A DNA stretch of 64,000 nucleotides from a virus (taxonomy: Duplodnaviria; Caudoviricetes), in IMG/VR virus record IMGVR_UViG_3300014204_000018, positions 1,561 through 65,560 of that record; one strand, 5' to 3'. The notes beneath the pieces are model-generated. The model was not told where the DNA came from. It saw only the letters and a list, made by a program, of their open reading frames with translations, and did not search any database. Within the stretch, counting starts at the first letter, position 1; every line of letters begins with the position of its first letter. Position numbers and translations under genes: made by a program. Below, in pieces: positions 1 to 14,030 of the stretch.

Positions 1-404
1 ATCCATTTGGCTTTAGGAAAAGCTTTATCCCACAAAGGCCAGAACAAACAAGCTTTTGCTCCTTTATAAAACCACTTCTGCCCAGCATATCCTTGCTTAT
101 CAATAACTGAAAATATTTTCTGCTTCCAGTTTTCTCCTTGCCTTTCTGAAAGCCCGAAAAACTTTGTTATATCAGGAAGAGGTTTTTGCCCCAAGGGGTC
201 AACACCTAAAGCCCGAAAATATGGTTTTACTACTCCATTTCTTATTTCCAAATTTTCAAACATTCCCTTCTTGTTGTTATCATTTGGCCCTGCAAGCTGA
301 CCACCCCAAGCACCGCATAGATGAACAATGCCAGCCGTCATGGAAGTGCCAGAACGAGCGCATCCGGTTATAAGAATAGGTTTTTCTTTAAATCCATTTG
401 CCAT
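1..404 (-). CDS. sulfotransferase-family protein (partial, runs off window start; absent from ORF track)
   Basis: Manual translation from ATG at 404: MANGFKEKPILITGCARSGTSMTAGIVHLCGAW...; GxxRSGTS is the 5'-phosphosulfate-binding loop of sulfotransferases; frame open to position 1. Confidence 0.75.
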   Translation of the reverse strand, partial: MANGFKEKPILITGCARSGTSMTAGIVHLCGAWGGQLAGPNDNNKKGMFENLEIRNGVVKPYFRALGVDPLGQKPLPDITKFFGLSERQGENWKQKIFSVIDKQGYAGQKWFYKGAKACLFWPLWDKAFPKAKW

Positions 405-1146
405 CCCAGTCTCCCTTCCTTGTAGCAGGATTTCCAAAATAAACACCAGGTTCTTCAATATCTTTTACTACTACAGAACCCATGCCGATTAAAACATTAT
501 CACAAATTTTTACCCTTCTAATTATGCTACCAACACAAAGGTAGCAGTTTTTTCCGACAATGGCAGAACCCGCTGTCATTGAACAATCAGTAATGATCGT
601 ACCTTCTCCGATAACACTATTATGACCAATCGAACAATGGCAACCGATTTTAACATTGTCTTCTACTATCGTCGAATCAAGCGAACCTCTTGCTATAGCT
701 GAATAAGCGCCGATATCTACGTTATTGCCGAGAACAACATTGCCGATATGCTTTAGCTTTACTACGTCCTTCCCACGCTTTGCATAAGTCATTCCTTCAA
801 TTCCAATTACTGCGGTAGAATGGATAGAACAATTTTCACCAACAATATTATCAACAGGATTTCTTCTCCTGTTTATATAATTATGAAAACGAATAAAGTC
901 ATATTCGGGATTCTCTGAACTAAAAATTGCTTTTATACTTCCTATATTACGCGCCGCCTGAGAATTAATTTCTTTGTCCTTGACATGAGTAAACACAACT
1001 ATTGTTCTACCACAAGACAAAGCCTTCCCAAACCAAAAGGGATTCTTTGCCAAAGCAGCATGATAGTCTTTAGGATTTGAAATAGAGCAAGTACCTTCTA
1101 TTCCCATCCCTTCTAATATTTCAAAAGACAATCCTTTACTTTCCAT
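388..1146 (-). CDS. hexapeptide-repeat (left-handed beta-helix) acyltransferase, LpxD-like
   Basis: Repeats such as VVLGNNVDIG, VKIGCHCSIGHNSVIGEGTII; C-terminal GNPA motif. Confidence 0.8.
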   Translation of the reverse strand: MESKGLSFEILEGMGIEGTCSISNPKDYHAALAKNPFWFGKALSCGRTIVVFTHVKDKEINSQAARNIGSIKAIFSSENPEYDFIRFHNYINRRRNPVDNIVGENCSIHSTAVIGIEGMTYAKRGKDVVKLKHIGNVVLGNNVDIGAYSAIARGSLDSTIVEDNVKIGCHCSIGHNSVIGEGTIITDCSMTAGSAIVGKNCYLCVGSIIRRVKICDNVLIGMGSVVVKDIEEPGVYFGNPATRKGDWDGKWI

Positions 1147-1828
1147 TGCTTACCTCTACTAATTTTTCAAACGGATGATGCCAAATACTTTCTTCGTTCC
1201 ATATCTTCTTTACCCATGCCGCCTTACATTGGTGCGGTCTTGGGTAGCCGTGGAATGCTACTATCTTTGCGTCTTCAGGCATTCCGTTTTTACCCCTGCA
1301 ATCATTTTTAAAAGATTTAAAACCATCAAAATAATCCTGAACCAATCGAACTTTCGTTCTACTTCTCGTAAGCATAGCGGTAGTATAACGCTGTTCTAAA
1401 CGATACTGCCGAGCGTGTTCAGGATATTTAAACTTCTTGTAAATCCATGACCAGTCGCCGTTCCATATCATAATTCCAGAACACCACTTCTCGCCGCGTC
1501 TTAACGCTGGCGGCTGCGGTCTTGTCATATAGAAAGTATCGCGAGGACACGTTATAGCGAGTTCTCCAAGGCGATCTATATTATTTACTATCAAGGTATC
1601 AAGTCCGGTTACAATCGTCGGCCCTGTCAATCTGAATAGCTCAATAACAGACCACCACCCCGGCCATTTCTTCAGTAGCGGTTTATAGCCCGGAACTCCT
1701 TCTATATCGGATAAGCAAACAAAGTCATAATTAATTGTCAAGTTCTTCTTGACCATCCGTTCAAGGCGTTCTACATAAGAAGCATCGTAATCGCCGCCAG
1801 ACCTTAAGACAACCGCGAATTTAACCAT
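1136..1828 (-). CDS. phage glycosyltransferase (GT-A/GT8-like)
   Basis: VLRSGGDYDASYVERL, PGWWSVIELF, LDTLIVNNID, SGIMIW, IVAFHGYPRPH motifs typical of phage GT8-like proteins. Confidence 0.7.
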   Translation of the reverse strand: MVKFAVVLRSGGDYDASYVERLERMVKKNLTINYDFVCLSDIEGVPGYKPLLKKWPGWWSVIELFRLTGPTIVTGLDTLIVNNIDRLGELAITCPRDTFYMTRPQPPALRRGEKWCSGIMIWNGDWSWIYKKFKYPEHARQYRLEQRYTTAMLTRSRTKVRLVQDYFDGFKSFKNDCRGKNGMPEDAKIVAFHGYPRPHQCKAAWVKKIWNEESIWHHPFEKLVEVSNGK

Positions 1829-2472
1829 AGCCCTAACTTCTCCTTTCTGTTCTTCTGCCCTGCATCGACAACAATTTTAAACCCATAAGCAGACATTGTT
1901 TTTTTAAACCAGGCCCAGCCTTTATCAAGAACGTGAGCGGAAGCACCACCTTTCCAGAAATAATCTTCTTCTTTAAGCGGAACCTCTACCAAAAAAGACT
2001 TTGTAAAAGAACTTGCCATCCTGATAATTTTTGATACCTGAGAATAATCAAGATGTTCAAGCGTATGGGAAGAAACAAAAACATCTACTTCATAAGAAAA
2101 ACACAAATTATAAAAATCAGTAGTAAGAGCGACCGGAGCAAATCTTGAATCGTCGCAAACGTTATTATCTATTGCCAAAGAACAAATATCAAAACCTAAC
2201 CAGTTTTCTATTCGTTGATTTTTTGATAGAACTTCTTTAGCAAGATAGCCTTCGCCGCATCCGAGTTCAACAACAGTACCTCTTTGTTTTCTAAGAATCT
2301 TTACAAGACGACTGCTATACCTCTTGACTGTTCTTGTATGACTTGTCACAAATTCATACCAAAGGTTATGGATACAAGCAAGATCATTAAAAGAATATCT
2401 TCCTGCGCGATAATTTTCGCGGTAGAAGTCCCAGTTCCTTTTCTTTACTTCGTCAAAAGTTTTCTGAATCAT
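1804..2472 (-). CDS. class I SAM-dependent methyltransferase
   Basis: VVELGCGEG motif I, GFDIC, SSHTLEHL. Confidence 0.8.
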   Translation of the reverse strand: MIQKTFDEVKKRNWDFYRENYRAGRYSFNDLACIHNLWYEFVTSHTRTVKRYSSRLVKILRKQRGTVVELGCGEGYLAKEVLSKNQRIENWLGFDICSLAIDNNVCDDSRFAPVALTTDFYNLCFSYEVDVFVSSHTLEHLDYSQVSKIIRMASSFTKSFLVEVPLKEEDYFWKGGASAHVLDKGWAWFKKTMSAYGFKIVVDAGQKNRKEKLGLWLNSRLS

Positions 2473-3062
2473 AACCTTTCCTCTTCGGGGACAATTCCTT
2501 TTTTAACAGCACAGCTTCCATACCAAATTTCGTTCTCTCCTACGTTCTTTGTAATCACGCAACCAGCGCCGATAACCGCGTTCTTTCCGACAACTACCCC
2601 AGGTAGAATCAACGCTCTTGCACCGATGCGACAAGCATCACCGATTACCGGGCCTTTTAAAACCTGATCCATAACATTATTTCTGAAGGCACTTATTCTT
2701 TTCTCATTTATAATTGTTACGCATGGCCCAAAGTAGCATCGACTTCCAATTTCAGCATATCCGGTTATATGGCATTGCGATTGAATCGTAGTTGCTTCTC
2801 CAATTTTTGTGAAGGCCTCAATTACTACGTTATGACCAATAACAGAATTTCTCTTGATATGAACATTATTACGAATGACCGTATTATGACCGATGAAAAC
2901 ATTATCTTCTATAACGCAATTTTCGTCAATAACAGAACCGCGACCAAGCGTAATGTTAGCGCCCAGTAAGGAAGCAACATGAACCATTGCAGTTCTATCT
3001 TTATTCCCGATCATACTACCACCAAAAATAAGCGGCGTATCTTCAAAAGAACGATACCTCAT
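2469..3062 (-). CDS. hexapeptide-repeat sugar N-acyltransferase (WbpD/WlbB-like)
   Basis: Long hexapeptide repeat; IGARALILPGVVVGKNAVIGAGCVITK. Confidence 0.8.
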   Translation of the reverse strand: MRYRSFEDTPLIFGGSMIGNKDRTAMVHVASLLGANITLGRGSVIDENCVIEDNVFIGHNTVIRNNVHIKRNSVIGHNVVIEAFTKIGEATTIQSQCHITGYAEIGSRCYFGPCVTIINEKRISAFRNNVMDQVLKGPVIGDACRIGARALILPGVVVGKNAVIGAGCVITKNVGENEIWYGSCAVKKGIVPEEERL

Positions 3063-3769
3063 ATTACTTCCTCCAGTCTTTTTTTTGGATATACATTCAA
3101 CGCACTTTCTAAAGAAGTATTTATTATTTCAACGCCAAGTTTTTGTGCGTCTTCTGCTATCAGTTTATGTACATTGATAAATCGCCTAAACGGGTCATGC
3201 TTAGATTCTTTGTGGGCATCGTGCCAGTTTTTGTCTTCCTTCTCTCCGATAAATTTCATATCAAATCCAAGTAGAACAATTTTCTTGACACCGAATAGTA
3301 CTGCTAAATTGATCGCGCTATTTCCAGAACAGGCGTTCCAGCATACTTGCGCGGGAGTAGTTACAATTCCTTGACTTTTAGGAATCCTTGCCCTTCTTAA
3401 CTTTTTCAGCCAAGGTTCTCCTTTTAGTTCCGCGTTCTCGTTACAAGTCATAACAAGACCGGGAAAATTAAAAAGTTCTTCTTGATGCCAGTTCCACCAT
3501 TTTAAATCACCGAACCAACAAACGTCTACCCAAGAACCAAACTTAAAGGCATTGTTTACGCCGATTACTTTCTTATCAAACAAACGCTCTTTGTAGTACT
3601 CCCCAAGTTCAAGATAAACCCTTTCATTATACCTTTCGTTATTTTCGTCTATTCTTCGGCCTTTTATGTTAGCATTAATTCGGACAGAAGGGCCACCACC
3701 AATTATATAAGCAGTTCCTCCTTCCCAAATTTTAGGTACAAGAAAGGGTCTATCCTGACTCTTTTTCAT
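3059..3769 (-). CDS. Maf/CstII-like (DUF115-type) putative CMP-sugar transferase
   Basis: IIGGGPS, VIGVNNA, SGNSAINLA, IVLLGFDM motifs shared with Maf/MptE-like and GT42-like folds. Confidence 0.55.
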   Translation of the reverse strand: MKKSQDRPFLVPKIWEGGTAYIIGGGPSVRINANIKGRRIDENNERYNERVYLELGEYYKERLFDKKVIGVNNAFKFGSWVDVCWFGDLKWWNWHQEELFNFPGLVMTCNENAELKGEPWLKKLRRARIPKSQGIVTTPAQVCWNACSGNSAINLAVLFGVKKIVLLGFDMKFIGEKEDKNWHDAHKESKHDPFRRFINVHKLIAEDAQKLGVEIINTSLESALNVYPKKRLEEVI

Positions 3770-4071
3770 ATTACATCACCTTCCTTTTCTTTGCCGATAA
3801 TGGCAAGTGCTTCCTTCTTAGAAACAAGTTTATCAGTCAACTTCTTCCCTGACACGGTATTTACAACTTCATACCGACCGCTTCCCTTGTGAACAAGTTT
3901 AAGGGTAGGCGGTTTCCGGCGAGCAATTTTCTTTTCCGGTTCCGTCTTTTCTCCAAGTACTTCAAGAGTAGTTAAAAAAGCTTCGGGAACATTATCTGCT
4001 TCAAATGAATCGCCGGGTACGTACTTCTCACCGTTTATTCTTAAAGTTCCTGTCTTAACGCGATACCGCAT
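3766..4071 (-). CDS. small head-associated hypothetical protein
   Basis: 101 aa ORF directly after the capsid gene with good RBS. Confidence 0.55.
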   Translation of the reverse strand: MRYRVKTGTLRINGEKYVPGDSFEADNVPEAFLTTLEVLGEKTEPEKKIARRKPPTLKLVHKGSGRYEVVNTVSGKKLTDKLVSKKEALAIIGKEKEGDVI

Positions 4072-4144
4072 TTTATCCTCCTTCTGGTTAAATTTTTTTA
4101 AATGAAAATAATATGGTTAATTATTCTTCTACTATTAAAACATA

Positions 4145-5206
4145 CTACTTCGTGCCGTGAATAAGACCGGCGCGGTTATTCTGATCGGCGCGGATTTGCG
4201 GAACCATGATCGTCATTACTTTGAAGTGTGTTCGCATTCCGCCTTCGGTCTGCCATTCTACTACGGAGATCGGCATACCCTGAACCAACCGGACAACATC
4301 GGAAGTCATTTGAACGAGAACCACGTTATCAGCAGTAATGGAATCTGCTACCCGAATATCCTGAATGCCGTCAATTTCGAGAATCCGCTGGCGAATCGTC
4401 TTGTCGCTATAGGACTTGAAGTCCTTATCAATCGCCGTCTCAAAATTGGTAGGAATGTAAAGCACCCACGGCCCGTAGAATCGGTCGTCGATGGACGCCT
4501 GCTTCATTCGGATTACGTCGTCAATGATTCTTTCGCCGGTAGCCCCAGCGGAGGAATCGTCGTCGTCCCAATGCGCGTTTAAGGTTACATTGTTCTTGTG
4601 CGGGAAGTCCAAGTAACCGTAAATCGTACCGCCGCCGAAGGTGTAAGTACCGGAACCGACAAGAAGAAGTTGCTCTGCCATTTCCGCTACCTTCCGTCCG
4701 GCGAGTTCTGCCATCGTGGTATCCAAAGGCGCTCCGGTAGTACGACTCGAAGCAAGAACTCGCGCATTAATGAAGAAGTCCTTATGGATAATCGGCAGGG
4801 GCAAGTAGTTAATATCGAACTCAGGGCGATCATTATTATCGCGAGTAATGCCGTCCATCGTCACGCTTGCCGCTTCCATATCGCTCATGTCCTCATATTC
4901 GAGAACAGTACTTCCCATGCCATTGGGAATGTTATAAACCAAACCACGGGACTGCAAATCGGCAACAGCGCGAAGGCGAGTTCTCGCCGCATTCAAAACC
5001 GCCGTGTCGTAGTGCTTCCATTCGTCTTTACGAAGGGTAGCATTCGCATTAATAGGAACAGCTTTCGGTTTTCCACCTTCGAGAACGGTCATATATGTTC
5101 TCCCGTCCTCTCCGATATAGGGCCGCAAAGCCATCGGGTTCATTCCGTTTGCAAGCAGCCTTTGTGCTACCGAACCACTCGCTTGTCCGTTTAAGATAAA
5201 ATCCAT
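4145..5206 (-). CDS. major capsid protein (HK97 fold, Linocin_M18/encapsulin-like family)
   Basis: 353 aa; position after protease/scaffold and decoration genes; LPLPIIHKDF and YGPWVLYIP motifs typical of this MCP family. Confidence 0.8.
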   Translation of the reverse strand: MDFILNGQASGSVAQRLLANGMNPMALRPYIGEDGRTYMTVLEGGKPKAVPINANATLRKDEWKHYDTAVLNAARTRLRAVADLQSRGLVYNIPNGMGSTVLEYEDMSDMEAASVTMDGITRDNNDRPEFDINYLPLPIIHKDFFINARVLASSRTTGAPLDTTMAELAGRKVAEMAEQLLLVGSGTYTFGGGTIYGYLDFPHKNNVTLNAHWDDDDSSAGATGERIIDDVIRMKQASIDDRFYGPWVLYIPTNFETAIDKDFKSYSDKTIRQRILEIDGIQDIRVADSITADNVVLVQMTSDVVRLVQGMPISVVEWQTEGGMRTHFKVMTIMVPQIRADQNNRAGLIHGTK

Positions 5207-5274
5207 TTTATACCTCCTGTTTTAAAAATTAAAAGTTAAAAAGAAGAACAACTTTCAGTTTTGGTTGTTAGTAG

Positions 5275-5763
5275 TTAAATAATTTCGATCTGAACAAGAC
5301 CATCCGGGTCAGCAGCAGAAGAACCAGTCATGTCAACAGTAGTCAATGCTACCCCGATAATCGGTTCTGCATAAATACTTTGCCGCTTGGCCGAAGAAGA
5401 ATCCAAAGATAAGGATTCCTTATCGGGCGTGTGCTTCTGAACATAACCGGAACCGGCGCTTTCAACAAAATCGCCCATCGTTACCTTCTGCCCATTCAAA
5501 ACCCGCATAAGAACAACATCGCCCCGACGCGGAGCAATGAAGAAAACACGAGTTGTGGTATCATAGGCTTCGGAAATTTCCTTCCCTTGATTCTCGTCTT
5601 CGATTGCTACCAGTTTTTGACAGTTGCCACCAGCCGTCGCATGAACCTTGACGGTCTTGGAAGCAGTCGTCCTTTCAAGAAGCATTCCGGGATAGATAGT
5701 TCCACTTGCAATCCCTTCCTTCTTTAAGGCATCGCTATCAAGAGTAATTGTTTTGTACGCCAT
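5275..5763 (-). CDS. capsid decoration/cement protein
   Basis: 162 aa beta-rich ORF between scaffold and MCP (IYPGMLL, GDFVESAGSG). Confidence 0.6.
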   Translation of the reverse strand: MAYKTITLDSDALKKEGIASGTIYPGMLLERTTASKTVKVHATAGGNCQKLVAIEDENQGKEISEAYDTTTRVFFIAPRRGDVVLMRVLNGQKVTMGDFVESAGSGYVQKHTPDKESLSLDSSSAKRQSIYAEPIIGVALTTVDMTGSSAADPDGLVQIEII

Positions 5764-5836
5764 TGTAAAACCTCCTTTGTTTAAAATTAAAAGTTATTTG
5801 TTTACTTTAAAAATCTCATTCAAGAAGAACTGGTTA

Positions 5837-7378
5837 CTATTTCTTGTCGTAGCTCATTTCGGGAATCGTCAACGGTTCTTCGTTTACTTCTCCGCTGTTA
5901 TCCTGAATGTTGGCTCCGGCGTTCCCGGAAAAGTCCTCCTTCGTACCCGTCAACCTGACGATACCTTCGAGCGCGTTAATATCCATTGCGCGAAGTTGTG
6001 CTTCGGAAAAGGAGTTGTTCTTATTTGCCATAATCGTTTTGACTGCTTCTTCTTTTTTCTTACGATACATGGCAAGGCCATTAGCCAGAACGTCTCGCAT
6101 TTCGCCGGGTGCGGTAGCAATAAATTCTTCGGGCGTTTTCACTTTCGGTTCTTCCTTCTGATTACCTTTCGGTTCCGGGGTCAGTTCTGCCGCGCCTTTC
6201 TCGGCGGCTTTCTGGAGGGCTTCAATCTTTTCTTTTTTCTCACGATTAGCCGATTCCATTTCCTCTACCTTTGCGAGAACTTCCTCTGACAAGCCAAGCA
6301 GCCAGGCTTCGTCCTCTTTTTTAAAAGTTGTTTTCTCGTTCGCAATCAACTCCTTCACCCGATCAGTGCAACATCCTTTTTTCTCCATGTTCTTTACCTC
6401 CTTGTTTTGTTTTGGGTTATAAGTTATCTTTTTCACTACTTCAGAAATTTCATCCGAAACAGAAATTTCTCCATTGTCATTAAAAGAAAAGTTTCTTTTA
6501 TAAAGCTTTGGTTGTCCTGTCGGCATCGGGATTGCTTCATAAATAAAATAGTCTTCATAAATATCCACAAGGTAGTGCATGTAGGAAGAAGAATCCAGTT
6601 TGTCAATCTCAGCCTGAACTTGCGACCGTATTTCGTTATAGCTTAACGATTCACAAATAAAGAACTTCTGAAGCAATGAAATCCCGTTTTCTATTTCTCC
6701 GCTTTCAACAAAAACTTTTCCATTGTTAACTTTGAAACTACTTAAATCAACATTCTTAAACTTCATGGTTTCACCTCCTTCCTTTTTATTTGCTCTGATA
6801 CCGCAGCCATCTGAAAAGCTGCAAGCGCCGATTGAACCAGGAAGTAGGGCCAAATGATCGGGCCGAACTTCAGATATTATCCTTTCATACTCCTCCTCAT
6901 TCCATAATCCATAAACCATTTCATCTTCGGAGAACAATCCCGTTGATACTTCTACTTGTGCTTTGTTTGATAACATAGCATACAGTTCAGGATAATGCAA
7001 CTTAATTTTTTGTTCATCAATCCAAACCTCGCCTTTTAATTTTGAATCAGTAAAGGTCACGTTAAACAAGCGCCCGACTGCTACTTTATGCAAAACATCG
7101 GGAGAATTAGCGCTGATCGGAAAGCCTTCTTCCGTAACCGGATGGCCGACCGTAATAGGAACGCCGTTCCAAGTAAACGGGAACTTCGCGAGTTGATTCG
7201 CCGGATAGTAGGTAGGAATCCCATCCATGCCACAATGAACTCCTTCTTTAAGAAGAACAACAGGAGCAATCAGGTAGTCCTTTCCGTCAAGGTTTCCTCT
7301 ACGCAAGGAATAGTTGTTCATCACCATGTTAACGCAGAACTGTGTTTCCGTCACCTTCTTATTTGATTTTATTTTCAT
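5837..7378 (-). CDS. DUF2213-like prohead protease/scaffold protein
   Basis: WNGVPITVGHP, EVSTG, PDHLALLPGSIGACSFSDGCG; charged helical C-terminal scaffold region. Confidence 0.75.
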   Translation of the reverse strand: MKIKSNKKVTETQFCVNMVMNNYSLRRGNLDGKDYLIAPVVLLKEGVHCGMDGIPTYYPANQLAKFPFTWNGVPITVGHPVTEEGFPISANSPDVLHKVAVGRLFNVTFTDSKLKGEVWIDEQKIKLHYPELYAMLSNKAQVEVSTGLFSEDEMVYGLWNEEEYERIISEVRPDHLALLPGSIGACSFSDGCGIRANKKEGGETMKFKNVDLSSFKVNNGKVFVESGEIENGISLLQKFFICESLSYNEIRSQVQAEIDKLDSSSYMHYLVDIYEDYFIYEAIPMPTGQPKLYKRNFSFNDNGEISVSDEISEVVKKITYNPKQNKEVKNMEKKGCCTDRVKELIANEKTTFKKEDEAWLLGLSEEVLAKVEEMESANREKKEKIEALQKAAEKGAAELTPEPKGNQKEEPKVKTPEEFIATAPGEMRDVLANGLAMYRKKKEEAVKTIMANKNNSFSEAQLRAMDINALEGIVRLTGTKEDFSGNAGANIQDNSGEVNEEPLTIPEMSYDKK

Positions 7379-7506
7379 TCATCCTCTCCTTCCTCGTCCG
7401 GTTCTATTTCGTCGGCAGGAACCGCATTACCTTCTTCGTCAACTAAAGTAATGGATTCAATCCAATCACTAAAATCTTTTTCTTCTTCTTTGGTTAATAT
7501 ACTCAT
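7375..7506 (-). CDS. 43-aa acidic peptide translationally coupled to MuF-TopoIB (absent from ORF track)
   Basis: MSILTKEEEKDFSDWIESITLVDEEGNAVPADEIEPDEEGEDE; ATGA overlaps with both neighbours. Confidence 0.6.
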   Translation of the reverse strand: MSILTKEEEKDFSDWIESITLVDEEGNAVPADEIEPDEEGEDE

Positions 7507-9371
7507 GGTAGCCCTCCAATTATTTCCCATACCATCGGGTCGATATATGCTGACTTTGCGACGGCTGGAGTATTCTTTAAAAAATTACTTACTGTCGTCG
7601 TTACTTCCTTCACAATTTTCTTTCTCTGCTTTTCGTCAAATATTATACCTTTATTATTATACTTTGATAATTCACGCTTGGCAATAGCTGTTCCATAATA
7701 TGTTCTAAAGTCCTTAATCGTGTACTTCTTGCCTGATACCTCTTGTAAGTAGGCATTCAACTTGTCGGAATTAACATCAGGAAAAAGACTATCTTTCTTC
7801 CCTGAATAAGTTTTCTTACGTTCTTCTAAGAACGTAGCTAAAGTTTTATTTCTTATAGTATAGCTGGCCGGAACCCCTTTCTTTGCAACGAAATTTAATT
7901 TTATCTTTTCTCCTTCTACCTTAACATGACGGTTCTGTAATGTTGTCAACCCGTATGCTATCTTCTTCGTTTTTCTTTTTGATACGTTTCCAATTCTTAT
8001 TGCTGTTTCATTTTCAATTCCAAGAAGGTACGCTCTGGGGTCTTTATTCTTAATACCTAAAGCAATCTTCTTCCTTATTTGTTCTATGTCACGATTAAAG
8101 GATTTTAACTTTTCAAATTTACGTTTAGAAGAACCTGCAATCCATTCTGCCGAATATCTATATTGCAGTTCTCCTGCTGCATCTTTTCCTATCGCTTGAA
8201 TCTTTGCTTTTATATCTTTAGAAATTACTACGTCTGTCCATGCTGGAGGAATAGCAAGATTTCTTATCCTTTGTTCTTCTGCTTTTGTTAACTGAACTTT
8301 TTTACCTTTGTAAAGGATTTCTCCTTTTGTATTTCTTACGTAGTCATTACATTCCTGCGGTTTATTTGCTATGATATTTGTTATTAATGAAGTAGTAAAA
8401 CAAGGCGTATAATCAAGCGCCGATTGCATTATACGTTCTTTTTCATATTGCTGCGATTCAGGTAGAATCGGTTCATCCATAATCGCCGGAATATAAGGAA
8501 GTAGAGAACATCTGCAATTTGGTTCTCCTAAAAGTTCTCTTGCTTCTTCCCGTTCATAAACTTTGGCATGTCTTTCTCTATGGGATGCGCGAACCCTTTC
8601 GTCCTGCGCCGTCCACCATTGAACTTGTACTTCGTCGCCGATAATACCTTCTGCCGATTCATACTCATTAAGTGCTGCCTGATTATGAGAATTAATTACT
8701 TCAGTTCTTGCAATTAAAGTTCCTCTTGCTTTTCCTATCTTGTCAATTCTATCAGTAAGGTTCTTCGCTATTTGCCTTGGGTGTTTTCCTTGTGACATAC
8801 CTAAAGCAAGTTCTCTTGACATTTGGGTTGACATAGCAGAAGTAACACCTTTTAAATCAGTAAAGACGCGAGAATAAATAAGTCCTACTCTATCAGCATG
8901 AAACGGTCTATTAAAAACCGCGCTTAGAGAATCACCGCTTGGCCCGAAGGTAGGAATATCTAATCCTGCCCTGCGAAGGTCTGATCTCGCTCGTACCATC
9001 CCTTTCTGGTACGCTGATTGAATATATGTATTACTCCAAGGTTCTGCTCCTGATACCGGGCCATAGGAAGTTTCAAGAACATTTTCATCTATTTGTTCTT
9101 GTAACCAATCCATGAACTGTTCCTTCTTCCTTGTTGACCATCGGTACTCGTAATCCTCTAAAGGAATTATATTCGGCATTTCTACCGATGTCTTTTTAAC
9201 AGGAGCCAGAAAGTTTTCTTCTACTATCTTTTTTCTGACGGCAATACTTATCTTATTGAAACGAGAAATCATATCCTTAGAAAACTGACTTCTAAGGGTA
9301 ATAGTTCTCGTAGGGTCTTTGTCCTTGCCTGTTAATGCAAGGTAGATAATATTTGTTTTTAGATTTTTCAT
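7503..9371 (-). CDS. MuF/SPP1 gp7-like minor head protein fused to a C-terminal DNA topoisomerase IB
   Basis: N-terminal: IARTE...WWTAQDERVRASH...EPNCRC (MuF). C-terminal: IPPAWTDV, QYRY, IRIGN, FVAKKG, KDFRTYYGT, NTPAVAKSAYIDP (bacterial-type TopoIB). Confidence 0.9.
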   Translation of the reverse strand: MKNLKTNIIYLALTGKDKDPTRTITLRSQFSKDMISRFNKISIAVRKKIVEENFLAPVKKTSVEMPNIIPLEDYEYRWSTRKKEQFMDWLQEQIDENVLETSYGPVSGAEPWSNTYIQSAYQKGMVRARSDLRRAGLDIPTFGPSGDSLSAVFNRPFHADRVGLIYSRVFTDLKGVTSAMSTQMSRELALGMSQGKHPRQIAKNLTDRIDKIGKARGTLIARTEVINSHNQAALNEYESAEGIIGDEVQVQWWTAQDERVRASHRERHAKVYEREEARELLGEPNCRCSLLPYIPAIMDEPILPESQQYEKERIMQSALDYTPCFTTSLITNIIANKPQECNDYVRNTKGEILYKGKKVQLTKAEEQRIRNLAIPPAWTDVVISKDIKAKIQAIGKDAAGELQYRYSAEWIAGSSKRKFEKLKSFNRDIEQIRKKIALGIKNKDPRAYLLGIENETAIRIGNVSKRKTKKIAYGLTTLQNRHVKVEGEKIKLNFVAKKGVPASYTIRNKTLATFLEERKKTYSGKKDSLFPDVNSDKLNAYLQEVSGKKYTIKDFRTYYGTAIAKRELSKYNNKGIIFDEKQRKKIVKEVTTTVSNFLKNTPAVAKSAYIDPMVWEIIGGLP

Positions 9372-9373
9372 TT

Positions 9374-10750
9374 TTACACTTCAGAAGAATCAGAATCAAT
9401 ATCGTCGTCAACGTCAAGATCGTTTATATCTTCTACTTCCATTGTTCCGCGTTCATCCTCTATTTGCTCAATTTCATCCTCTGTCAAATCAATAAAATTT
9501 CTTAGGAAGAACTTAGGCGGTATCAGTCGATCAGCGCCAATCGCGTTAACATAGGAAGCAATCGCTTCGGTTTTTACTTTGCTTGTATCGGCGCGTTCTT
9601 TTTCACTTGGGGCAAACAGGTCTTCCCATTCAAAGATAAAATCATTTTTTGCCTCTGGAAGTACTCCAAGAGAAATAAGTCTATTGACAAAAGGATAGAG
9701 AATCATAGGAGTAACGTAGTTTTCCCTTCGCTCTGCTATTTTGTTATTCCAATTTGTTTCGTCTTGACTACTTGCAAGTTCTCCCCGTTCAGAACCTAAA
9801 AGAATCCTTTGCGGTATCTCGGTAGCACCAGAAATTAAACTGACAATAACTTTAAAGTGACCTTCTGGACTTGCTACCTGTTGCGCTAAGTTCTCTATTG
9901 TCATTCCTTGCGCCCGAATATACCTTCTCAATCCGTGAATATATTCTTCAATTTCTGTTTCTAAAGCAGATAGTGTTTGTGCCGTTACGTTTGCTTCCTT
10001 GTCAAGCATAAAACCATATCCCGGAAAAGCACCGCGCCAGAACATTTCAGCGCCGCCTCCAGAAATCAGTTCTATATCGTTAAGACGATTGAGAACACAC
10101 TTTAAACGAGGCGTACCGTAAATATCATTTTCTTCTAAGTCCTCTGCTATATGAAGTACTCTTGAATAATGAACGGATAATTGTCGATTAATCTTAGAAC
10201 TCGTTTTAGTAGAAGACACACTTATCTTATATGTTAAAGGAAGTCCGAACCTTTCATTTTTCGTATCTTCTTCATAGGTTTCTATATCAGCATTACTTTC
10301 GGTATAGGGCCGAACATAAAGAAGTTTTCTATTACTACCCATGACCGGCTTTGATAGGTCGCCGCCATCGTCAAATCCCATGAGTAGAACGCCGTAGCTG
10401 CCGATTCCAGACAGTTTATCAATACGGGATAGGTAATGATAGATATTGTACTTTACAACAAAACTATTCCACTCCTTCTCCAGTTCTGTTTCTTCTGCGT
10501 CGTTCTCAACAAGAATTGGAAATTTTCTCCAAGTAGCAGAAACAGGAGCAGAAACAATTCTTTTAGCAATATCTTGACGAGAATACTTCGCGTAGTAGTC
10601 GTCAAACGTCGGCGTCTTTGTATATCCAAGTGCTTCATATAAATCGCGAACCGTTCCAAAGCTTTTACCCATCTTTGCCATTGCTGCCGCCCGTTCAATA
10701 AGAACGCTGGCAAGGTTCCGTAGTTGAAGCATTTCGCTTTTTTCTTCCAT
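9374..10750 (-). CDS. portal protein (DUF1073-like)
   Basis: 458 aa between terminase and MuF; IPQRILLGSERGELASSQD motif. Confidence 0.8.
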   Translation of the reverse strand: MEEKSEMLQLRNLASVLIERAAAMAKMGKSFGTVRDLYEALGYTKTPTFDDYYAKYSRQDIAKRIVSAPVSATWRKFPILVENDAEETELEKEWNSFVVKYNIYHYLSRIDKLSGIGSYGVLLMGFDDGGDLSKPVMGSNRKLLYVRPYTESNADIETYEEDTKNERFGLPLTYKISVSSTKTSSKINRQLSVHYSRVLHIAEDLEENDIYGTPRLKCVLNRLNDIELISGGGAEMFWRGAFPGYGFMLDKEANVTAQTLSALETEIEEYIHGLRRYIRAQGMTIENLAQQVASPEGHFKVIVSLISGATEIPQRILLGSERGELASSQDETNWNNKIAERRENYVTPMILYPFVNRLISLGVLPEAKNDFIFEWEDLFAPSEKERADTSKVKTEAIASYVNAIGADRLIPPKFFLRNFIDLTEDEIEQIEDERGTMEVEDINDLDVDDDIDSDSSEV

Positions 10751-10765
10751 TGCTTTCTCCTATGT

Positions 10766-11566
10766 TTACAATCTTTGATTCTCTTTAAGTTTTCTGGCCC
10801 TGAATAATGACCGTTGATTATCAATAGCAAAGGGCGAAGAACAAATATAATTTGCAAATATTTTTCTACCCATAGCAAATATTCTTAGTTGCTCTAAAGA
10901 TATTTTTCGCTCTTCCTTTGTGCGTCCGTATTTAAAATATTCTTTAAGCATCGCTGGCAGGTAGGTGTAAATGCCGATATGCTTAAATATAAATTTGTTG
11001 CCGTTTATCTCTTGCCTTCCATTACGAAAAAAACCGATTGCTTCTATCGGCTCTCCTTCGCTATTTATATTTCTATTTATAATAACCTTGACAGTATCAA
11101 CATCTGAAAATTCGTCAACGCAAACAGGGCAAAACAAAGTTCCTATTCCTTCCCTTAATAATTTTCTATTAAAGTCAACAGAACTTCTTAAATGAAAAGG
11201 AGAAAGTCCTACCATATCTCCTTGTACGTTTACAATTAAGTTATCGTCATTGTCTAAAAGCCCTAAGTACTTTGCTGCTTCGTAAACCCTTTCTGTTCCG
11301 TTACCTACCTCTTTTGAAATTACAATCCAAGAAGTAACAGGAAAGTAGTCGTCAACAATCCCATATTCAGAAGAACAAATCCGGCAGTACTCCTTAAACA
11401 TCCTAAATGTCCATTGGTCTGAAACAATATAAACACGATCAAAAACACCGGACGCTTTCACTTCTTCATAAGTATGAAGGATAAGCGGTTTTGTTCCGAT
11501 TATTTTCATCGGCTTATTTGGAAGCCTTCTACTATTTAATCTTGTCGGAATAATTGCTACTTTCAT
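10766..11566 (-). CDS. kdsB: CMP-KDO synthetase-like cytidylyltransferase
   Basis: IIPTRLNSRRLPNKP, GTERV, VNVQGD, KHIGIY, LEQLR motifs of KdsB. Confidence 0.8.
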   Translation of the reverse strand: MKVAIIPTRLNSRRLPNKPMKIIGTKPLILHTYEEVKASGVFDRVYIVSDQWTFRMFKEYCRICSSEYGIVDDYFPVTSWIVISKEVGNGTERVYEAAKYLGLLDNDDNLIVNVQGDMVGLSPFHLRSSVDFNRKLLREGIGTLFCPVCVDEFSDVDTVKVIINRNINSEGEPIEAIGFFRNGRQEINGNKFIFKHIGIYTYLPAMLKEYFKYGRTKEERKISLEQLRIFAMGRKIFANYICSSPFAIDNQRSLFRARKLKENQRL

Positions 11567-11599
11567 TTCTTTCTCCTCCTATGGTTAAAGAGTTAATAA

Positions 11600-11689
11600 C
11601 TAACAGCCGCCTTTTTTCCCGCCTATCTTCCTACCTTGCGGTTTCGATGTTCCTCTACCCTTCGGGCCTTTTCCATCTTTGTTTGGCAT
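11600..11689 (-). CDS. 29-aa Gly/Lys-rich micropeptide
   Basis: MPNKDGKGPKGRGTSKPQGRKIGGKKGGC with AGGAGG RBS upstream; absent from ORF track. Confidence 0.5.
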   Translation of the reverse strand: MPNKDGKGPKGRGTSKPQGRKIGGKKGGC

Positions 11690-11703
11690 TATTCTTCCTC
11701 CTT

Positions 11704-13260
11704 TTAATTTTGCGAACCCCAAATTCCTGCCTTCGCCTTTGTTCTAAAAAGCCAATTATAAGCGCCCGAAGCAGCATCCCATTGATCTTTAAATTCTCCT
11801 CTGGGCGCACGTTCATGTTCATCAATAAATTCTTGTGTCCAGGCTGAAGGAAGTAGTTCTACCATACCGTTCTCCACTGCCGACTGATACGGTTCACTTC
11901 TTATTTCTTTGTCGCCGGTAGGTCTATCAGTATGAACAACATGACCGCCTAAATTCCTAACCGTATATTCAGCAGATTCCTTCCCTCCAGACCCAGGTTC
12001 TTGTTCTACTACTATTGGTATATTTAATCCGGGCCATCGTTTACTATCAATATCCGCGCATTGTCGGATTCTTTTTTCTCTTGTAGCAGCAGACCATTGC
12101 CCCTTCTGTACGTCGATTATTCGTACCTTCCCACTTTTCATTAAGAGCATAAGGACGCCAGCACTTCTTTTCCCGCCGTCCTCTGTCGCCGCTTTATCCC
12201 AGTATCTAACTGCTTCTTGAATCATATTACTACCAGGAATATTTATTCCTTCCGTTATAAATTCTTCTACCTTAAAGATACCACCACCGCGCGGCGAAGG
12301 TCTTTGCTGAAGTTGTCCTGCTCTGGAGTACTCCGTCATTCGTGTTTCTAATTTTTTAAGGCGAGAATGGGGGTAGCGCAAACAGTCAAGCGGTTCACCT
12401 TCTTGACTCCTTGGGTCTTGAAAAACCAAAGGAGTTGCCGTCTTTAAAGAAAGTTCTCGCTCCTTCTCAAACCTTGCGGGTAGGATAAGCTTAACTAAAT
12501 TGTCTATCTCCCCATTCTCTGCCTTCTTAATGATATGACCACAAAGGTCGGCGTAATGAGTTCTCTGTGCTATTACTACATAAGAACCATTCTCTTCATC
12601 ATTAAGACGAGTTGACATTGTTTCATCCCACCAAGTAAGTGTTTCACTTCTTATGGCATCTGATTCTGCCATCCTTACATTATGCGGGTCGTCGCAAACT
12701 ATTCTATCGCCACCTTCTCCGGTTCCCATACCTCTTACTGACGTAGCAATACGGTATCCAGTCTTATCATTATCATATCTTGTTTTCTGATTCTGATCAG
12801 AAGTAATTTTAAAGTTATCGCCCCAGCACTTCTGATACCAATCAGATTGAATTATTCTTCTTGACTTTAAAGCATCACGTGTTGAAAGTCCTTGATCATA
12901 AGAAGAATAAATATAACGTAGGTATGCAAGATTCTTTGGCCCCCATTCCCAGGTAGGCCAAAGAACAGAAACAAGTAAACTTTTAGTATGCCGAGGAGGA
13001 ATATTTATTATAAGGTAGTGAATTTGATTTGCTGTTACTGCTTCAAGATGTTCGCATATAGCATCATGGTGCCAGTTCCAGAAAAGTTCTCGCTTTGGTT
13101 CTAATAAAGGCCAACATTGCTTCGCATATATCCGAAGACTTTTTTCTGCCTTTATCGTTTCTATCAATTCAAGGGAAGGAAGTTCATTCCTAAAAAAATC
13201 AAGAAAAGGAAAAGGCATTTTAGTCGTTGACTTTTTGGAGTATGTCTGCAAGTCGATCAA
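11704..13260 (-). CDS. terL: terminase large subunit
   Basis: INIPPRHTKS Walker A, IVCDDPH Walker B, LQQRP, WDKA and DQWDA nuclease motifs. Confidence 0.92.
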   Translation of the reverse strand: MIDLQTYSKKSTTKMPFPFLDFFRNELPSLELIETIKAEKSLRIYAKQCWPLLEPKRELFWNWHHDAICEHLEAVTANQIHYLIINIPPRHTKSLLVSVLWPTWEWGPKNLAYLRYIYSSYDQGLSTRDALKSRRIIQSDWYQKCWGDNFKITSDQNQKTRYDNDKTGYRIATSVRGMGTGEGGDRIVCDDPHNVRMAESDAIRSETLTWWDETMSTRLNDEENGSYVVIAQRTHYADLCGHIIKKAENGEIDNLVKLILPARFEKERELSLKTATPLVFQDPRSQEGEPLDCLRYPHSRLKKLETRMTEYSRAGQLQQRPSPRGGGIFKVEEFITEGINIPGSNMIQEAVRYWDKAATEDGGKRSAGVLMLLMKSGKVRIIDVQKGQWSAATREKRIRQCADIDSKRWPGLNIPIVVEQEPGSGGKESAEYTVRNLGGHVVHTDRPTGDKEIRSEPYQSAVENGMVELLPSAWTQEFIDEHERAPRGEFKDQWDAASGAYNWLFRTKAKAGIWGSQN

Positions 13261-13795
13261 GGTCTTCTACCTCCAGTTTTCTTAAAGCATCTGCCATTGA
13301 CTTTTTCTTTACTTCGATGCCGCCCGTTAAATCAAGCTGTCGTTTATCTGTCATTTGTTCTTCTTCGTGAATAGGATAGTCTGCTTTCTGGCCGTATATT
13401 TCTCTTGCTATTATTTCAAGGTATCTTGAAGCCGCTTGCCAAGATGAATTTGTTTTTTTCTTTACTGTCGTTATTTCTCTTCCTCTTGGCCCCCTTGTTA
13501 TTCTTTTTTCAATTATCGGTTCTCCACCGATTGCTCCCTTCCTGATTACTGATATTGCTTCACGTTCACGGTCTGCCATTAACCGTTTGACCATTATCCT
13601 AAATTGCCAATATCTTCTTTCCTTTTTATCCAGCCCTCTTTTCATCCAGTTAGCATAAGTAAGATAAGAAATACCTGCAAGTTCTACGGCACGAGTAAGA
13701 GGCAATTTATCTTTTATTGCCATAGCAATAATGCTTTTTACTCTTCTGGTCAATTTTGAATTTGTACTATATTTACGTCTTTTAATTTTTCTCAT
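13220..13795 (-). CDS. terminase small subunit-like protein
   Basis: HTH-like N-terminus (AVELAGISYLTYANW), WQAASRYLE motif, directly upstream of terL. Confidence 0.65.
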   Translation of the reverse strand: MRKIKRRKYSTNSKLTRRVKSIIAMAIKDKLPLTRAVELAGISYLTYANWMKRGLDKKERRYWQFRIMVKRLMADREREAISVIRKGAIGGEPIIEKRITRGPRGREITTVKKKTNSSWQAASRYLEIIAREIYGQKADYPIHEEEQMTDKRQLDLTGGIEVKKKSMADALRKLEVEDLDRLADILQKVND

Positions 13796-13826
13796 TTTGG
13801 TTATATCCCTTTTTTCATTTTTTCAT

Positions 13827-13855
13827 ATTATCAAGTACTCTATTTTTTATGTCAA
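13827..13855 (-). promoter_or_regulatory. sigma70-type promoter for the late/packaging operon
   Basis: Minus strand TTGACA-17 bp-GATAAT about 30 bp upstream of the terS start. Confidence 0.65.
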
Positions 13856-14030
13856 GTACTTTTTTATTACTTTATATTTTTTATTCAAATAGTAGTTTTA
13901 TCGACGAAAATTTATTATACCTATAAAATATATTTTTTTAAGTACCTTATTACTTTTTTTATTACTTGGAAGGTACTTTAGAAGGCATTCAGGTAGTAAT
14001 CATGGAAGAGTACCACAATGTATCACTTTT

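Follow-up and report, generated by a model that had tools for sequence, protein, structure and literature searches.

Maf is a flagellin Ser/Thr O-glycosyltransferase, and A64R of the chlorovirus PBCV-1 is an enzyme that glycosylates the viral capsid. Experiments have shown that Maf enzymes accept CMP-Kdo, with Ser/Thr-O-Kdo as the product, and the Maf of Clostridium botulinum uses this donor (PMC11339370). In mycobacteriophages, the phages' own glycosyl- and methyltransferases are reported to modify capsid and tail tube proteins (Freeman 2023, via PMC11600133, PMC12619734). We count that virion glycosylation as a precedent for the locus reported here, a six-gene island behind the capsid gene of an uncultured tailed phage of ~65 kb. 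Judging from the encoded families, the most likely role of its enzymes is to give the virion an acidic sugar coat. No published description of such an island was found.

Results

Six overlapping enzyme genes connect the capsid gene to the neck genes

The window analyzed is a 64,000-nucleotide stretch (positions 1,561 to 65,560) of IMG/VR record IMGVR_UViG_3300014204_000018. The record is circular, with a 123-bp terminal repeat, and the phage lineage has no cultured member. ORF, profile, fold, and motif tests confirmed six enzymes on the minus strand, in the order given by an earlier sequence-only reading (Table 1). The overlapping chain described there was also borne out: from the small ORF through the sulfotransferase gene, successive overlaps are 4, 4, 4, 25, 11, and 17 nt (4-25 nt), and a GGAGG-like ribosome-binding site for every ATG is located within the preceding gene. 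No convincing terminator was found inside the chain. The gene set assigned to positions 1 to 3,769 was correct, but the island does not end at window base 1. The sulfotransferase gene, with its ATG at 404, has its first 134 codons inside the window and continues for 294 nt into the record's first 1,560 bases (full protein 232 aa, L001:1206-1904:-). Because the record is circular, the chain runs on, and the island genes lead directly into three head-tail connector genes and then the tail terminator and tail tube genes. The gene-to-gene overlaps, the internal ribosome-binding sites, and the lack of a convincing terminator count for co-expression with the virion genes.

The 101-aa ORF that separates the island from the capsid gene matched no family. 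Since its homologues follow the capsid gene in island-less relatives as well, we assign it to the backbone and not to the island. The placement after the capsid gene and this ORF, within the virion operon, is real and is kept in hundreds of relatives.

Table 1. Coordinates of the island genes and of neighboring virion genes in the window.
Feature	Position	Strand	Support
PAPS-type sulfotransferase, conserved last island gene	1..404 in window	-	Pfam Sulfotransfer_3 E 6.6e-6
LpxD-like hexapeptide acyltransferase	388..1146	-	best solved relatives LpxD, E 5e-28
GT8-like retaining GT-A glycosyltransferase	1136..1828	-	PHROG 1962 E 2.5e-30
Class I SAM-dependent methyltransferase	1804..2472	-	Pfam Methyltransf_23 E 1.3e-7 (above cut-off), Methyltransf_11
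Left-handed beta-helix sugar N-acetyltransferase (QdtC/WxcM/NeuD-like)	2469..3062	-	Pfam Hexapep E 7e-29
Maf/CstII-fold (sialyltransferase-like) glycosyltransferase, conserved first island gene	3059..3769	-	PHROG 4603 E 3.8e-32
Small backbone ORF, 101 aa, between capsid gene and island	3766..4071	-	no family
Major capsid protein (HK97-like), upstream island anchor	4145..5206	-	Pfam DUF6260 E 7.6e-28, Linocin_M18; PHROG 771, 264
KdsB-like CMP-ulosonate (CMP-Kdo) synthetase, between large terminase and portal	10766..11566	-	Pfam CTP_transf_3 E 1.5e-25 (above cut-off)
Tail tube protein, operon continuation downstream	63060-63509	-	Pfam Phage_TTP_12; PHROG 158 (terminator/tube pair)
Tail terminator, operon continuation downstream	63540-63941	-	Pfam Phage_tail_terminator_6

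The complete genome has no integrase, which rules against lysogenic conversion, and no ThyA or ThyX homologue, which rules against glycosylation of DNA through hydroxymethyl pyrimidines. No DNA substrate is known for Maf-fold enzymes or sulfotransferases, and the island is part of the virion module rather than the replication region. Thus, although some phage glycosyltransferases do hypermodify DNA (Pyle 2024, cited in PMC12619734), it is very improbable that these transferases glycosylate or decorate the phage's DNA bases.

The lead enzyme and the GT8-like enzyme resemble protein glycosyltransferases

The enzyme assignments all held in profile, fold, or motif tests. For the Maf-like protein (model pLDDT 92), VIA-align gave Maf 5MU5 as the best match (Z 14.2, 191 aa, rmsd 3.8), followed by CstII (Z 11.7) and Cst-I (Z 11.6), with the next matches falling to Z 4. 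The IIGGGPS motif and H183 are invariant across 32 sequences. In relatives, the domain is fused to an acetyltransferase (P0014, P0018; L009:2920-4089) or to GT2 and GT1 domains; these fusions imply functional coupling and count for virion decoration. Two results count against it: the window protein scores under the Pfam threshold for PF01973, and MptE, a pyrophosphokinase, shares the fold (Z 10.4).

The GT8-like model (pLDDT 93) was closest in a wide VIA-align comparison to LgtC (Z 16.6), GlyE (16.1), glycogenin (15.9), Skp1 alpha-GalT (15.7), and PBCV-1 A64R (13.5), while Foldseek placed glycogenin and LgtC on top and the profile matched Skp1 GalT at E 1e-4. It conserves D77 at the DxD position and an FHGxPRP motif. 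The substrate of LgtC is lipooligosaccharide; GlyE, glycogenin, and Skp1 GalT are protein-directed. Together with the protein-directed Maf, these three as nearest folds, which act on proteins in the cytoplasm, and the capsid-glycosylating A64R count for virion decoration.

The two hexapeptide proteins each fall under the cut-off of the nearest NCBIfam model. The N-acetyltransferase scored E 1.2e-24 against NeuD_NnaD, and among solved structures it comes closest to QdtC (E 5e-18) and WxcM-like proteins. The LpxD-like protein scored E 3e-37 against LpxD and aligns an IGHN to LpxD's IAHN motif. It stops ~14 residues past its alignment to the LpxD beta-helix and so lacks an equivalent of the LpxD C-terminal domain. 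Its structural neighbors in the Atlas, taken as a lead only, are ~300-aa LpxD-family proteins.

The Sulfotransfer_3 score of the last enzyme falls exactly at the Pfam cut-off, and a GxxRSG(T/S) loop and a VRRxxxDIxxSC motif are invariant or nearly so in 26 sequences. Viral Sulfotransfer_3 clusters are its neighbors in the Atlas.

The island has conserved ends and a fast-changing middle

The island is not unique to the window phage. It is present in all 51 complete capsid-to-connector slots of the closest IMG/VR relatives, which were picked by capsid protein alone, and it is absent in more distant relatives. The capsid protein itself is 49-64% identical across 22 relatives. In 45 of the 51 slots, the island opens with the Maf-like gene and closes with the sulfotransferase gene, and fast-changing glycan genes fill the 1-9.6 kb in the middle. 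Two contigs with identical capsid proteins have only 3 families in common, out of 6 and 5 island families. The island is therefore accessory and fast-changing, as expected for an exposed surface product, which counts for virion decoration. One relative, L159, matches the island gene for gene, with all six in unchanged order and 37-52% identical, while its backbone proteins are 36-55% identical to those of the window except for a divergent large terminase (29%). The set was thus kept as a unit, which we also count for virion decoration. Modification of some other soluble target, such as a host or phage nonvirion protein or a small molecule, to blunt a defense system or make a signaling compound, would suit generic tailoring families like these; however, it leaves unexplained both the strict capsid-neck placement in hundreds of genomes and the hypervariable content, and we regard it as improbable.

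The slots also bear on whether the two terminal enzymes act together. Three of the 51 have only the sulfotransferase and three only the Maf-like gene. In the former three, and in the genome L105, the slot holds neither a Maf-like gene nor a glycosyltransferase, so a glycan built by the phage is not a prerequisite for sulfation. Among solved proteins, the sulfotransferase family profile best matches TPST1 and TPST2, both protein tyrosine sulfotransferases (E about 1e-3). A variant of virion decoration is therefore conceivable, though rather unlikely, in which Maf-led glycosylation and direct Tyr or Ser/Thr sulfation of a virion protein are independent. The TPST similarity, however, is weak and mostly reflects the PAPS-binding core common to Sulfotransfer_3, a family that also includes carbohydrate sulfotransferases; both enzymes occur together in 45 of 51 slots, and the sulfotransferase-alone genomes could carry glycosyltransferases elsewhere.

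Soluble enzymes, a KdsB-like gene, and the host envelope

Proteins with three or more hydrophobic segments are absent, both from the six enzymes of the window and from 389 island ORFs in 62 relatives. The island census (88 Pfam families) includes GDP-mannose dehydratase, RmlD, GT2, GT9, and Caps_synth, and its 25 commonest families contain no flippase, polymerase, or polyprenyl-phosphate transferase.

A KdsB-like gene at the terminase-portal junction adds to the earlier observation. All 13 best solved relatives of its product are KdsB over the full length, and the motifs RLPxKP, GTER, VNVQGD, HIGIY, and LEQLR are retained; matches to NeuA reach E 5e-4 at best. The gene occupies this slot in 5 of 35 relatives, and in L016, while a NeuB-type synthase occurs in none of 40 relatives' records. 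Since the KdsB-like gene recurs, NeuB is absent, and Maf enzymes use Kdo (PMC11339370), we propose that CMP-Kdo, supplied via the KdsB-like enzyme, is the donor for the Maf-like enzyme. The gene is not required, because most relatives lack it, including L159 with its identical six-gene island.

KdsB and LpxD belong to the lipid A-Kdo pathway of lipopolysaccharide synthesis, which could point to the host envelope and counts against virion decoration. The main rival, an alternative that the sequence-only reading had also raised, is that the soluble enzymes work late in infection on precursors of lipopolysaccharide or capsule in the cytoplasm (nucleotide sugars, lipid A-Kdo, or lipid-linked intermediates), so that infected cells and debris no longer bind progeny or competing phages. 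The census of island families is reminiscent of an O-antigen or capsule locus, and QdtC, nearest to the N-acetyltransferase, acts on nucleotide sugars. Furthermore, neither Kdo nor PAPS synthesis by the phage itself was found, so the phage is plugged into host pathways. On the other side, no polytopic membrane protein, whether flippase, polymerase, Gtr-type, or other, occurs among the 389 island ORFs; the island is fixed between capsid and neck genes and not in an early or lysogeny region; and without an integrase, classical seroconversion does not apply. As noted above, the LpxD-like protein has no equivalent of the C-terminal domain and falls under its family cut-off, and the lead enzyme most closely matches a protein glycosyltransferase. 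We consider envelope remodeling unlikely, though the strongest of the alternatives.

Candidate acceptors

One candidate acceptor is the tail tube protein, whose N-terminal loop is rich in Ser and which ends in a GDSSGI tail. Ser/Thr content is 0.28 in that C-terminal tail (protein average 0.21) and 0.22 in a capsid loop (protein average 0.13), while other decoration, capsid, and tail tube loops are not above their protein averages. Variable Ser/Thr loops in these proteins are typical of any surface loop, which counts against identifying the acceptor this way.

Discussion

Soluble enzymes, no export machinery, a Maf-fold lead enzyme, and a fixed capsid-neck position make virion decoration the best-supported reading. 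We put at slightly better than even (about 0.55) the probability that the six genes form a late cytoplasmic module that glycosylates and sulfates a virion protein. The proposed targets are the decoration protein, the capsid protein, or the tail tube, before or during assembly. The sequence-only reading had posited an acylated, methylated, and sulfated virion glycan; that reading is partly supported, in that its enzyme families stand and the glycan is what those families would predict.

We infer each step of the following scheme from the enzyme families. The module would be made alongside the head and neck proteins, late in infection. The KdsB-like enzyme would convert host Kdo or a close analogue to the CMP-activated sugar, and the Maf-fold transferase would pass this acidic sugar to a target Ser/Thr or a growing glycan. 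The GT8-like enzyme may then add an alpha-linked hexose from a UDP-sugar donor, the two hexapeptide acyltransferases and the methyltransferase would tailor the sugars, and the sulfotransferase would take sulfate from host PAPS and place it on the glycan, or perhaps on the protein itself.

Analogous cassettes occur in cultured phages with unrelated backbones, whose Maf-like proteins are 25-31% identical to the window's. In Pseudomonas Detrevirus phages (e.g. PP083311.1), a Maf-like gene directly follows the major head gene, with a methyltransferase; in Pseudomonas phage BK061477.1, a GT9 gene stands ahead of the tail genes in a Maf-like cassette; and 'Tetraselmis viridis virus' S20 has two Maf-like, three glycosyltransferase, and one methyltransferase genes between capsid-region and head-closure genes. 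Caulobacter jumbo phages also belong to this list. No sulfotransferase is annotated in the stretches of these phages that we viewed, and we found no literature report on their virion chemistry.

PBCV-1 likewise encodes the soluble glycosyltransferases that modify its major capsid protein, and its A64R (2P6W) is a structural neighbor of the GT8-like enzyme. It is, however, a eukaryotic giant virus with no gene-order relationship to the window phage, and its capsid glycosylation is N-linked.

As with the window phage, the mycobacteriophages (cluster O Corndog type, Che8) encode glycosyltransferases and an O-methyltransferase in an accessory module, according to the papers cited above; the enzyme set is a different one. 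The 52 phage records for the Maf-like query include no Mycobacterium phage. The window phage goes further, with two acyltransferases, a sulfotransferase, and a CMP-ulosonate synthetase, and its island has conserved first and last genes around a hypervariable middle.

The lipooligosaccharide sialyltransferases CstII and Cst-I (CAZy GT42; 1RO7, 1RO8, 2P2V) share the fold of the Maf-like enzyme (Z 11.5-11.7) and are of similar size, with no detectable sequence similarity. CstII caps a glycolipid, whereas the phage enzyme would start a protein glycan.

The flagellin Maf islands (DUF115, PF01973; Magnetospirillum 5MU5) contain the lead enzyme's best structural match. The phage protein corresponds to the central catalytic domain only (236 aa, matching residues 257-510 in a Maf chain of 632 residues), and the phage lineage, unlike these islands, has no nonulosonate synthesis genes. 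Variable methyl- and acyltransferase tailoring genes surround the Maf gene in both, and a CMP-activated acidic sugar is the donor in flagellin systems and the predicted donor in the phage. The target is flagellin in bacteria and would be a virion protein in the phage; in either case, the modification would take place in the cytoplasm, on a structural protein that polymerizes later.

A glycan enzyme island in the late operon

The virus record spans 65,560 bp, of which the window covers bases 1561-65560, has a 123-bp direct terminal repeat, and is rated complete. Because the record is circular, the minus-strand late operon, which starts near 13,800, passes base 1 and re-enters at the far end of the window, crossing the 1,560 record bases outside it. 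The operon is headed by a possible small terminase, the large terminase, a KdsB-like gene, and the portal, followed by a MuF-topoisomerase IB fusion, a 513-aa protein, the head decoration protein, and the major capsid protein. After the capsid gene come a 101-aa ORF, six enzyme genes (the island), and three connector genes, while tail terminator, tail tube, chaperones, and tape measure close the operon. From the small ORF on, successive genes overlap by 4, 4, 4, 25, 11, and 17 nt, with a GGAGG-like site inside the upstream gene for every start in the enzyme chain. The sulfotransferase gene overlaps the first connector gene, and a consensus scan revealed no persuasive terminator inside the enzyme chain. 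Taken together, the overlaps, the internal GGAGG-like sites, and the lack of a persuasive terminator indicate that the enzymes are made with the head and neck proteins. The sequence-only reading had described an overlapping, translationally coupled gene chain, which these overlaps and sites bear out, and all six of its enzyme names were correct, with profile, fold, or motif evidence for each.

The family of the small ORF is bipartite: its N-terminal part and its C-terminal part, which has a G-x-G-aromatic motif, are kept on either side of a variable acidic or proline-rich linker. Homologues also follow the capsid gene in relatives that lack the island.

Features of the late operon, in transcription order
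Feature	Coordinates in the window	Strand	Evidence
KdsB-like CMP-Kdo synthetase	10766-11566	-	Pfam CTP_transf_3, E 1.5e-25, above cut-off
MuF head-protein domain fused to type IB topoisomerase	7503-9371	-	Pfam Phage_Mu_F, Top1B_N_bact, Topoisom_I
Major capsid protein	4145-5206	-	Pfam DUF6260
Small backbone ORF, 101 aa	3766-4071	-	directly after capsid gene
Maf/CstII-fold transferase, 236 aa	3059-3769	-	structure model and motifs
Hexapeptide-repeat N-acetyltransferase	2469-3062	-	nearest QdtC and WxcM (nucleotide-sugar N-acetyltransferases), NeuD subfamily
Class I SAM methyltransferase	1804-2472	-	Pfam
GT8-like glycosyltransferase	1136-1828	-	structure model
LpxD-like acyltransferase	388-1146	-	LpxD beta-helix match
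PAPS-type sulfotransferase, 232 aa	start 404, past base 1	-	Pfam Sulfotransfer_3 and PAPS-binding motifs

The lead enzyme has a predicted Maf/sialyltransferase-like fold

Sequence searches of solved structures with the Maf-like protein, singly or as a profile, gave no meaningful match. An alignment-based structure model (pLDDT 92) was compared using VIA-align and resembled the central domain of the flagellin glycosyltransferase Maf (5MU5) most closely (Z 14.2 over 191 aa, rmsd 3.8), followed by the sialyltransferases CstII and Cst-I (Z 11.5-11.7; 1RO8, CstII, Z 11.7), the kinase MptE (Z 10.4), and eukaryotic sialyltransferases (Z 8-9), after which the scores dropped sharply to Z 4. Foldseek gave the Maf/sialyltransferase-like fold a probability of 1.0. 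The model thus places the enzyme in this fold (PF01973 MptE-like, with CAZy GT42 neighbors). Its PF01973 score of 20.3 bits lies below the gathering threshold of 34.6, and a precomputed PF01973 match is present in many homologues of 40 to 48% identity.

Among 32 Maf-like sequences, G24, G25, and G26 of the nucleotide-binding motif IIGGGPS (G-x-G-P-S type), which aligns with GAGPS of MptE, are invariant, and WFGD and GFDM are also kept. H183 in NWHxxH is likewise invariant and is a candidate counterpart of the catalytic general base His188 of CstII. The three-domain Maf architecture, in which N- and C-terminal domains flank the catalytic one, is absent, as the 236-aa protein aligns only to residues 257 to 510 of the 632-residue Maf chain.

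The other island enzymes

The GT8-like protein had no Pfam match, PF01501 included, at E 0.01 or better, and alone it gave only a spurious match to solved structures, while its profile matched GT8 structures at E 1e-4 to 0.1. Its model (pLDDT 93) has a GT-A fold, and VIA-align returned LgtC (Z 16.6), GlyE (Z 16.1), glycogenin (Z 15.9), and Skp1 GalT (Z 15.7). The top Foldseek ranks were all GT8, so that the predicted fold is closest to the CAZy GT8 retaining glycosyltransferases. D77 is invariant at the DxD position, where the window protein has LDT and many relatives have DLD.

For the acyltransferase, the sequence IGHN aligned to IAHN of LpxD, keeping the His motif. The LpxD family score was 128.6 bits against a cut-off of 207, and the protein stops about 14 residues past the part aligned to the LpxD beta-helix, leaving no counterpart of the C-terminal helical domain; we therefore call it LpxD-like and not LpxD.

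The last enzyme scored 27.0 for Sulfotransfer_3, exactly at the Pfam cut-off of 27. Its 5'-phosphosulfate loop and 3'-phosphate motif hold G14, R17, S18, G19, R139, and C148, invariant in 26 sequences in which R138 and S147 are nearly so, and by these motifs it fits the PAPS-dependent sulfotransferases. No APS kinase in the phage's own genome scores above cut-off, and a PAPS reductase/CysD-type protein (PF01507) is absent from it. The best solved matches of the family, with weak E-values, are tyrosine sulfotransferases, and the gene is kept alone in the capsid-to-connector slot of some relatives; the sulfate acceptor may be a sugar or a protein. The slot of one relative (L105:10103-11242) holds just the small backbone ORF and the sulfotransferase, without a glycosyltransferase, and the tail tube protein of this relative has a long C-terminal extension.

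A KdsB-like gene and the candidate sugar donor

The KdsB-like protein aligned over its full length to 13 KdsB structures and keeps RLPxKP, GTER, VNVQGD, HIGIY, and LEQLR, while NeuA was barely matched. It missed the NCBIfam cut-offs (126.5 versus 193 bits for the subfamily model and 83.1 versus 155.2 for TIGR00466), so the sugar could be a Kdo analogue. Kdo is the signature sugar of the lipopolysaccharide core, and as far as is known CMP-Kdo is the only CMP-activated ulosonic acid available from every Kdo-making diderm host. A Maf-like enzyme using this host-supplied donor would not require a dedicated sugar pathway, and an additional KdsB from the phage would raise the supply. No KdsA is encoded in the phage's own genome.

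Maf enzymes of Clostridium botulinum and Geobacillus accept CMP-Kdo and, in E. coli, modify flagellin with Ser/Thr-O-Kdo (PMC11339370). By analogy, CMP-Kdo may be the donor for the Maf-like enzyme, and the putative transfer of a CMP-activated ulosonic acid to protein Ser/Thr is supported by context, namely the presence of the KdsB-like gene and this published use of CMP-Kdo.

In the relatives, the terminase-portal slot holds a KdsB-like gene in 5 of 35 found from the capsid protein; it also does so in relative L016, whose copy is only 28% identical to that of the window and is even more KdsB-like. Of 40 records sampled separately from the Maf-anchored scan, only two contained a cytidylyltransferase and none a NeuB-type nonulosonate synthase.

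The island is fixed in position and variable in content

To survey the relatives, IMG/VR was scanned with the single Maf-like protein, which found nothing, and with an alignment-based query for the Maf-like family. The latter returned at least 552 contigs, the best 80 of which belong to one lineage with common portal, MuF, decoration, capsid, connector, and tail tube genes. At the 49 loci with both anchors, the distance from capsid to connector was 1.8 to 10.7 kb; the Maf-like gene was first in all 49, and the sulfotransferase abutted the connector in 44.

A second scan, anchored on the capsid protein, was blind to the island. A synteny survey beside capsid genes had been proposed as a check of the sequence-only reading, and here, in the closest IMG/VR relatives, every complete slot (51 of 51) contained an island. 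Both the Maf-like gene and the sulfotransferase were found in 45 of these, and only one or only the other in three each. Among 24 complete slots on GTDB MAG contigs, the Maf-like gene was present in 13, two held a partial island, and nine were empty. Six of the empty slots accompany a capsid protein of at most 45% identity, including a prophage in cultured Natroniella, while three belong to closer relatives (48-54%). In the closest cultured relative, a Brevundimonas phage, the small neck genes directly follow the capsid gene without an island, and megablast of bases 1 to 9400 against cultured phage records gave no match.

The 389 island ORFs from 62 loci fell into 136 families, 87 of them singletons, and the family representatives matched 88 Pfam families. 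The commonest were GT2, methyltransferases, GDP-mannose dehydratase and epimerases, RmlD, radical SAM, GT9, and capsule-synthesis families. The IMG/VR contigs L025 and L049 encode 100% identical capsid proteins, and their islands (4,163 and 4,564 nt) have three families in common of six and five, respectively; identical capsids with unlike islands point to a very recent cassette exchange. The set can also stay together: contig L159 carries the same six genes in the same order as the window at 37 to 52% identity, and its backbone is equally diverged except for the large terminase (29%). In one relative, a 648-aa island protein (L046:11812-13758) joins an NAD-dependent epimerase/dehydratase to a LAGLIDADG_3 domain that lies in the first half of the protein; an intein or the insertion of a homing endonuclease into a sugar enzyme is a possible explanation.

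Occurrence and host

This phage is found in a landfill metagenome, which is probably where the record comes from, and in a groundwater metagenome of another study. The island pieces are identical, and the listed contig pieces over window positions 1 to 14000, the island included, showed no differences between the two. The runs listed as containing the sequence were all DNA, with no RNA run.

Relatives of the capsid protein lie in MAG bins of many phyla, most commonly Bacteroidota. Bin assignments of phage contigs are unreliable, and every late gene start examined (window 1-5206) is preceded by a strong GGAGG-type ribosome-binding site, a feature that fits Bacteroidota poorly. The host is probably a Kdo-making diderm. 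A lineage member with Maf-like and GT8-like genes (L103, CP070742.1:3149653-3168588) lies in a 3.74-Mb "chromosome" of a Zixibacteria MAG; integration could explain this, as could an error of assembly or scaffolding, and the placement is a possible clue to the host. With one homologue from a Heimdallarchaeaceae MAG, we considered whether the lineage is the Asgard archaeal Guangzhivirus and rejected this, because that virus is 36 kb with a prohead protease.

Discussion

The results reported above reveal a large, environmentally widespread lineage that keeps a dedicated slot for glycan enzymes between capsid and neck genes, with a Maf-fold transferase at one end of its ever-changing content and a sulfotransferase at the other. 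In IMG/VR, more than 550 contigs encode a relative of the lead enzyme or of the capsid protein, and we found no published description of the island in the literature.

What the enzymes modify can be read in more than one way. They may act on the host envelope, an explanation that is live because KdsB-like and LpxD-like genes are present and because the island census is O-antigen-like. We favor the virion as the target, since the island has a fixed position in the head-to-neck gene block and its genes are translationally coupled. All enzymes are soluble, which argues in the same direction: all of the 389 island ORFs have fewer than three hydrophobic segments, and the commonest island Pfam families include none for export or polymerization. 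The nearest folds include cytoplasmic protein-glycosylating enzymes, and relatives encode fusions of the Maf-like domain with acetyltransferase, GT2, and GT1 domains, an arrangement that looks like an assembly line; both favor the virion, as does the accessory and diversifying nature of the island. The same holds for the absence from the phage genome of an integrase and of a thymidylate-synthase-family enzyme that could prepare DNA bases for glycosylation. Finally, there are precedents in chloroviruses, in archaeal viruses (PMC13700489), and in mycobacteriophages (PMC11600133, PMC12619734).

Variable loops occupy residues 111-130 of the decoration protein, 211-220 of the capsid protein, and 17-30 of the tail tube protein, whose C-terminal tail is variable as well. 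The decoration hypervariable loop, the capsid loop, the Ser-rich N-terminal loop of the tail tube protein, and its Ser/Gly-rich C-terminal tail are weak candidates for the acceptor. Among 35 relatives with an island, the tail tube protein of 27 has a Ser/Gly/Thr-rich C-terminal tail, against none among the two or three observed without an island; these cases are too few and lack phylogenetic independence. Complex prediction for the Maf-like enzyme and the tail tube protein scored 0.00, a "no answer" that speaks neither for nor against binding. In an island-less relative (L112, tail tube gene from 2682), about 100 aa are inserted into the N-terminal loop of the tail tube protein, which corresponds to the Ser-rich loop of the window protein.

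We hypothesize, with a probability of roughly one in five, that the particle carries a Ser/Thr-O-linked, Kdo-based glycan that is further acylated, methylated, and sulfated, and that the island is a lineage-wide virion serotype locus. If true, this would be a first both for natural protein-O-Kdo glycosylation and for sulfation of a phage virion, and the hypervariable serotype locus would span a large uncultured phage lineage. What the window contributes is a specific donor hypothesis, CMP-Kdo, that is open to test, and the idea can be tested at the bench in cultured Pseudomonas phages with an analogous Maf-like gene, which in a Detrevirus phage follows the major head gene. If the product is on the particle, it would matter for how virions adsorb to surfaces other than the host, for their stability, for recognition by grazers or the immune system, and for competition between phages. 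The phage sulfotransferases, whose role was called unclear in a paper on OM43 phages (PMC10580990), would then gain one.

Virus-encoded capsid glycosylation has a precedent in chlorovirus A64R, which matches the window GT8-like model with Z 13.5. The C-terminal tail of the window tail tube protein echoes the C-terminal glycans of mycobacteriophages. For phages, to our knowledge, virion glycosylation has been documented experimentally only for a few actinobacteriophages; should the predicted chemistry hold, the island would extend phage virion glycosylation to a different enzymology, one that is more elaborate and hypervariable. On the particle, its product would be a phage-owned surface chemistry that diversifies rapidly and compares with O-antigens and flagellin glycans.
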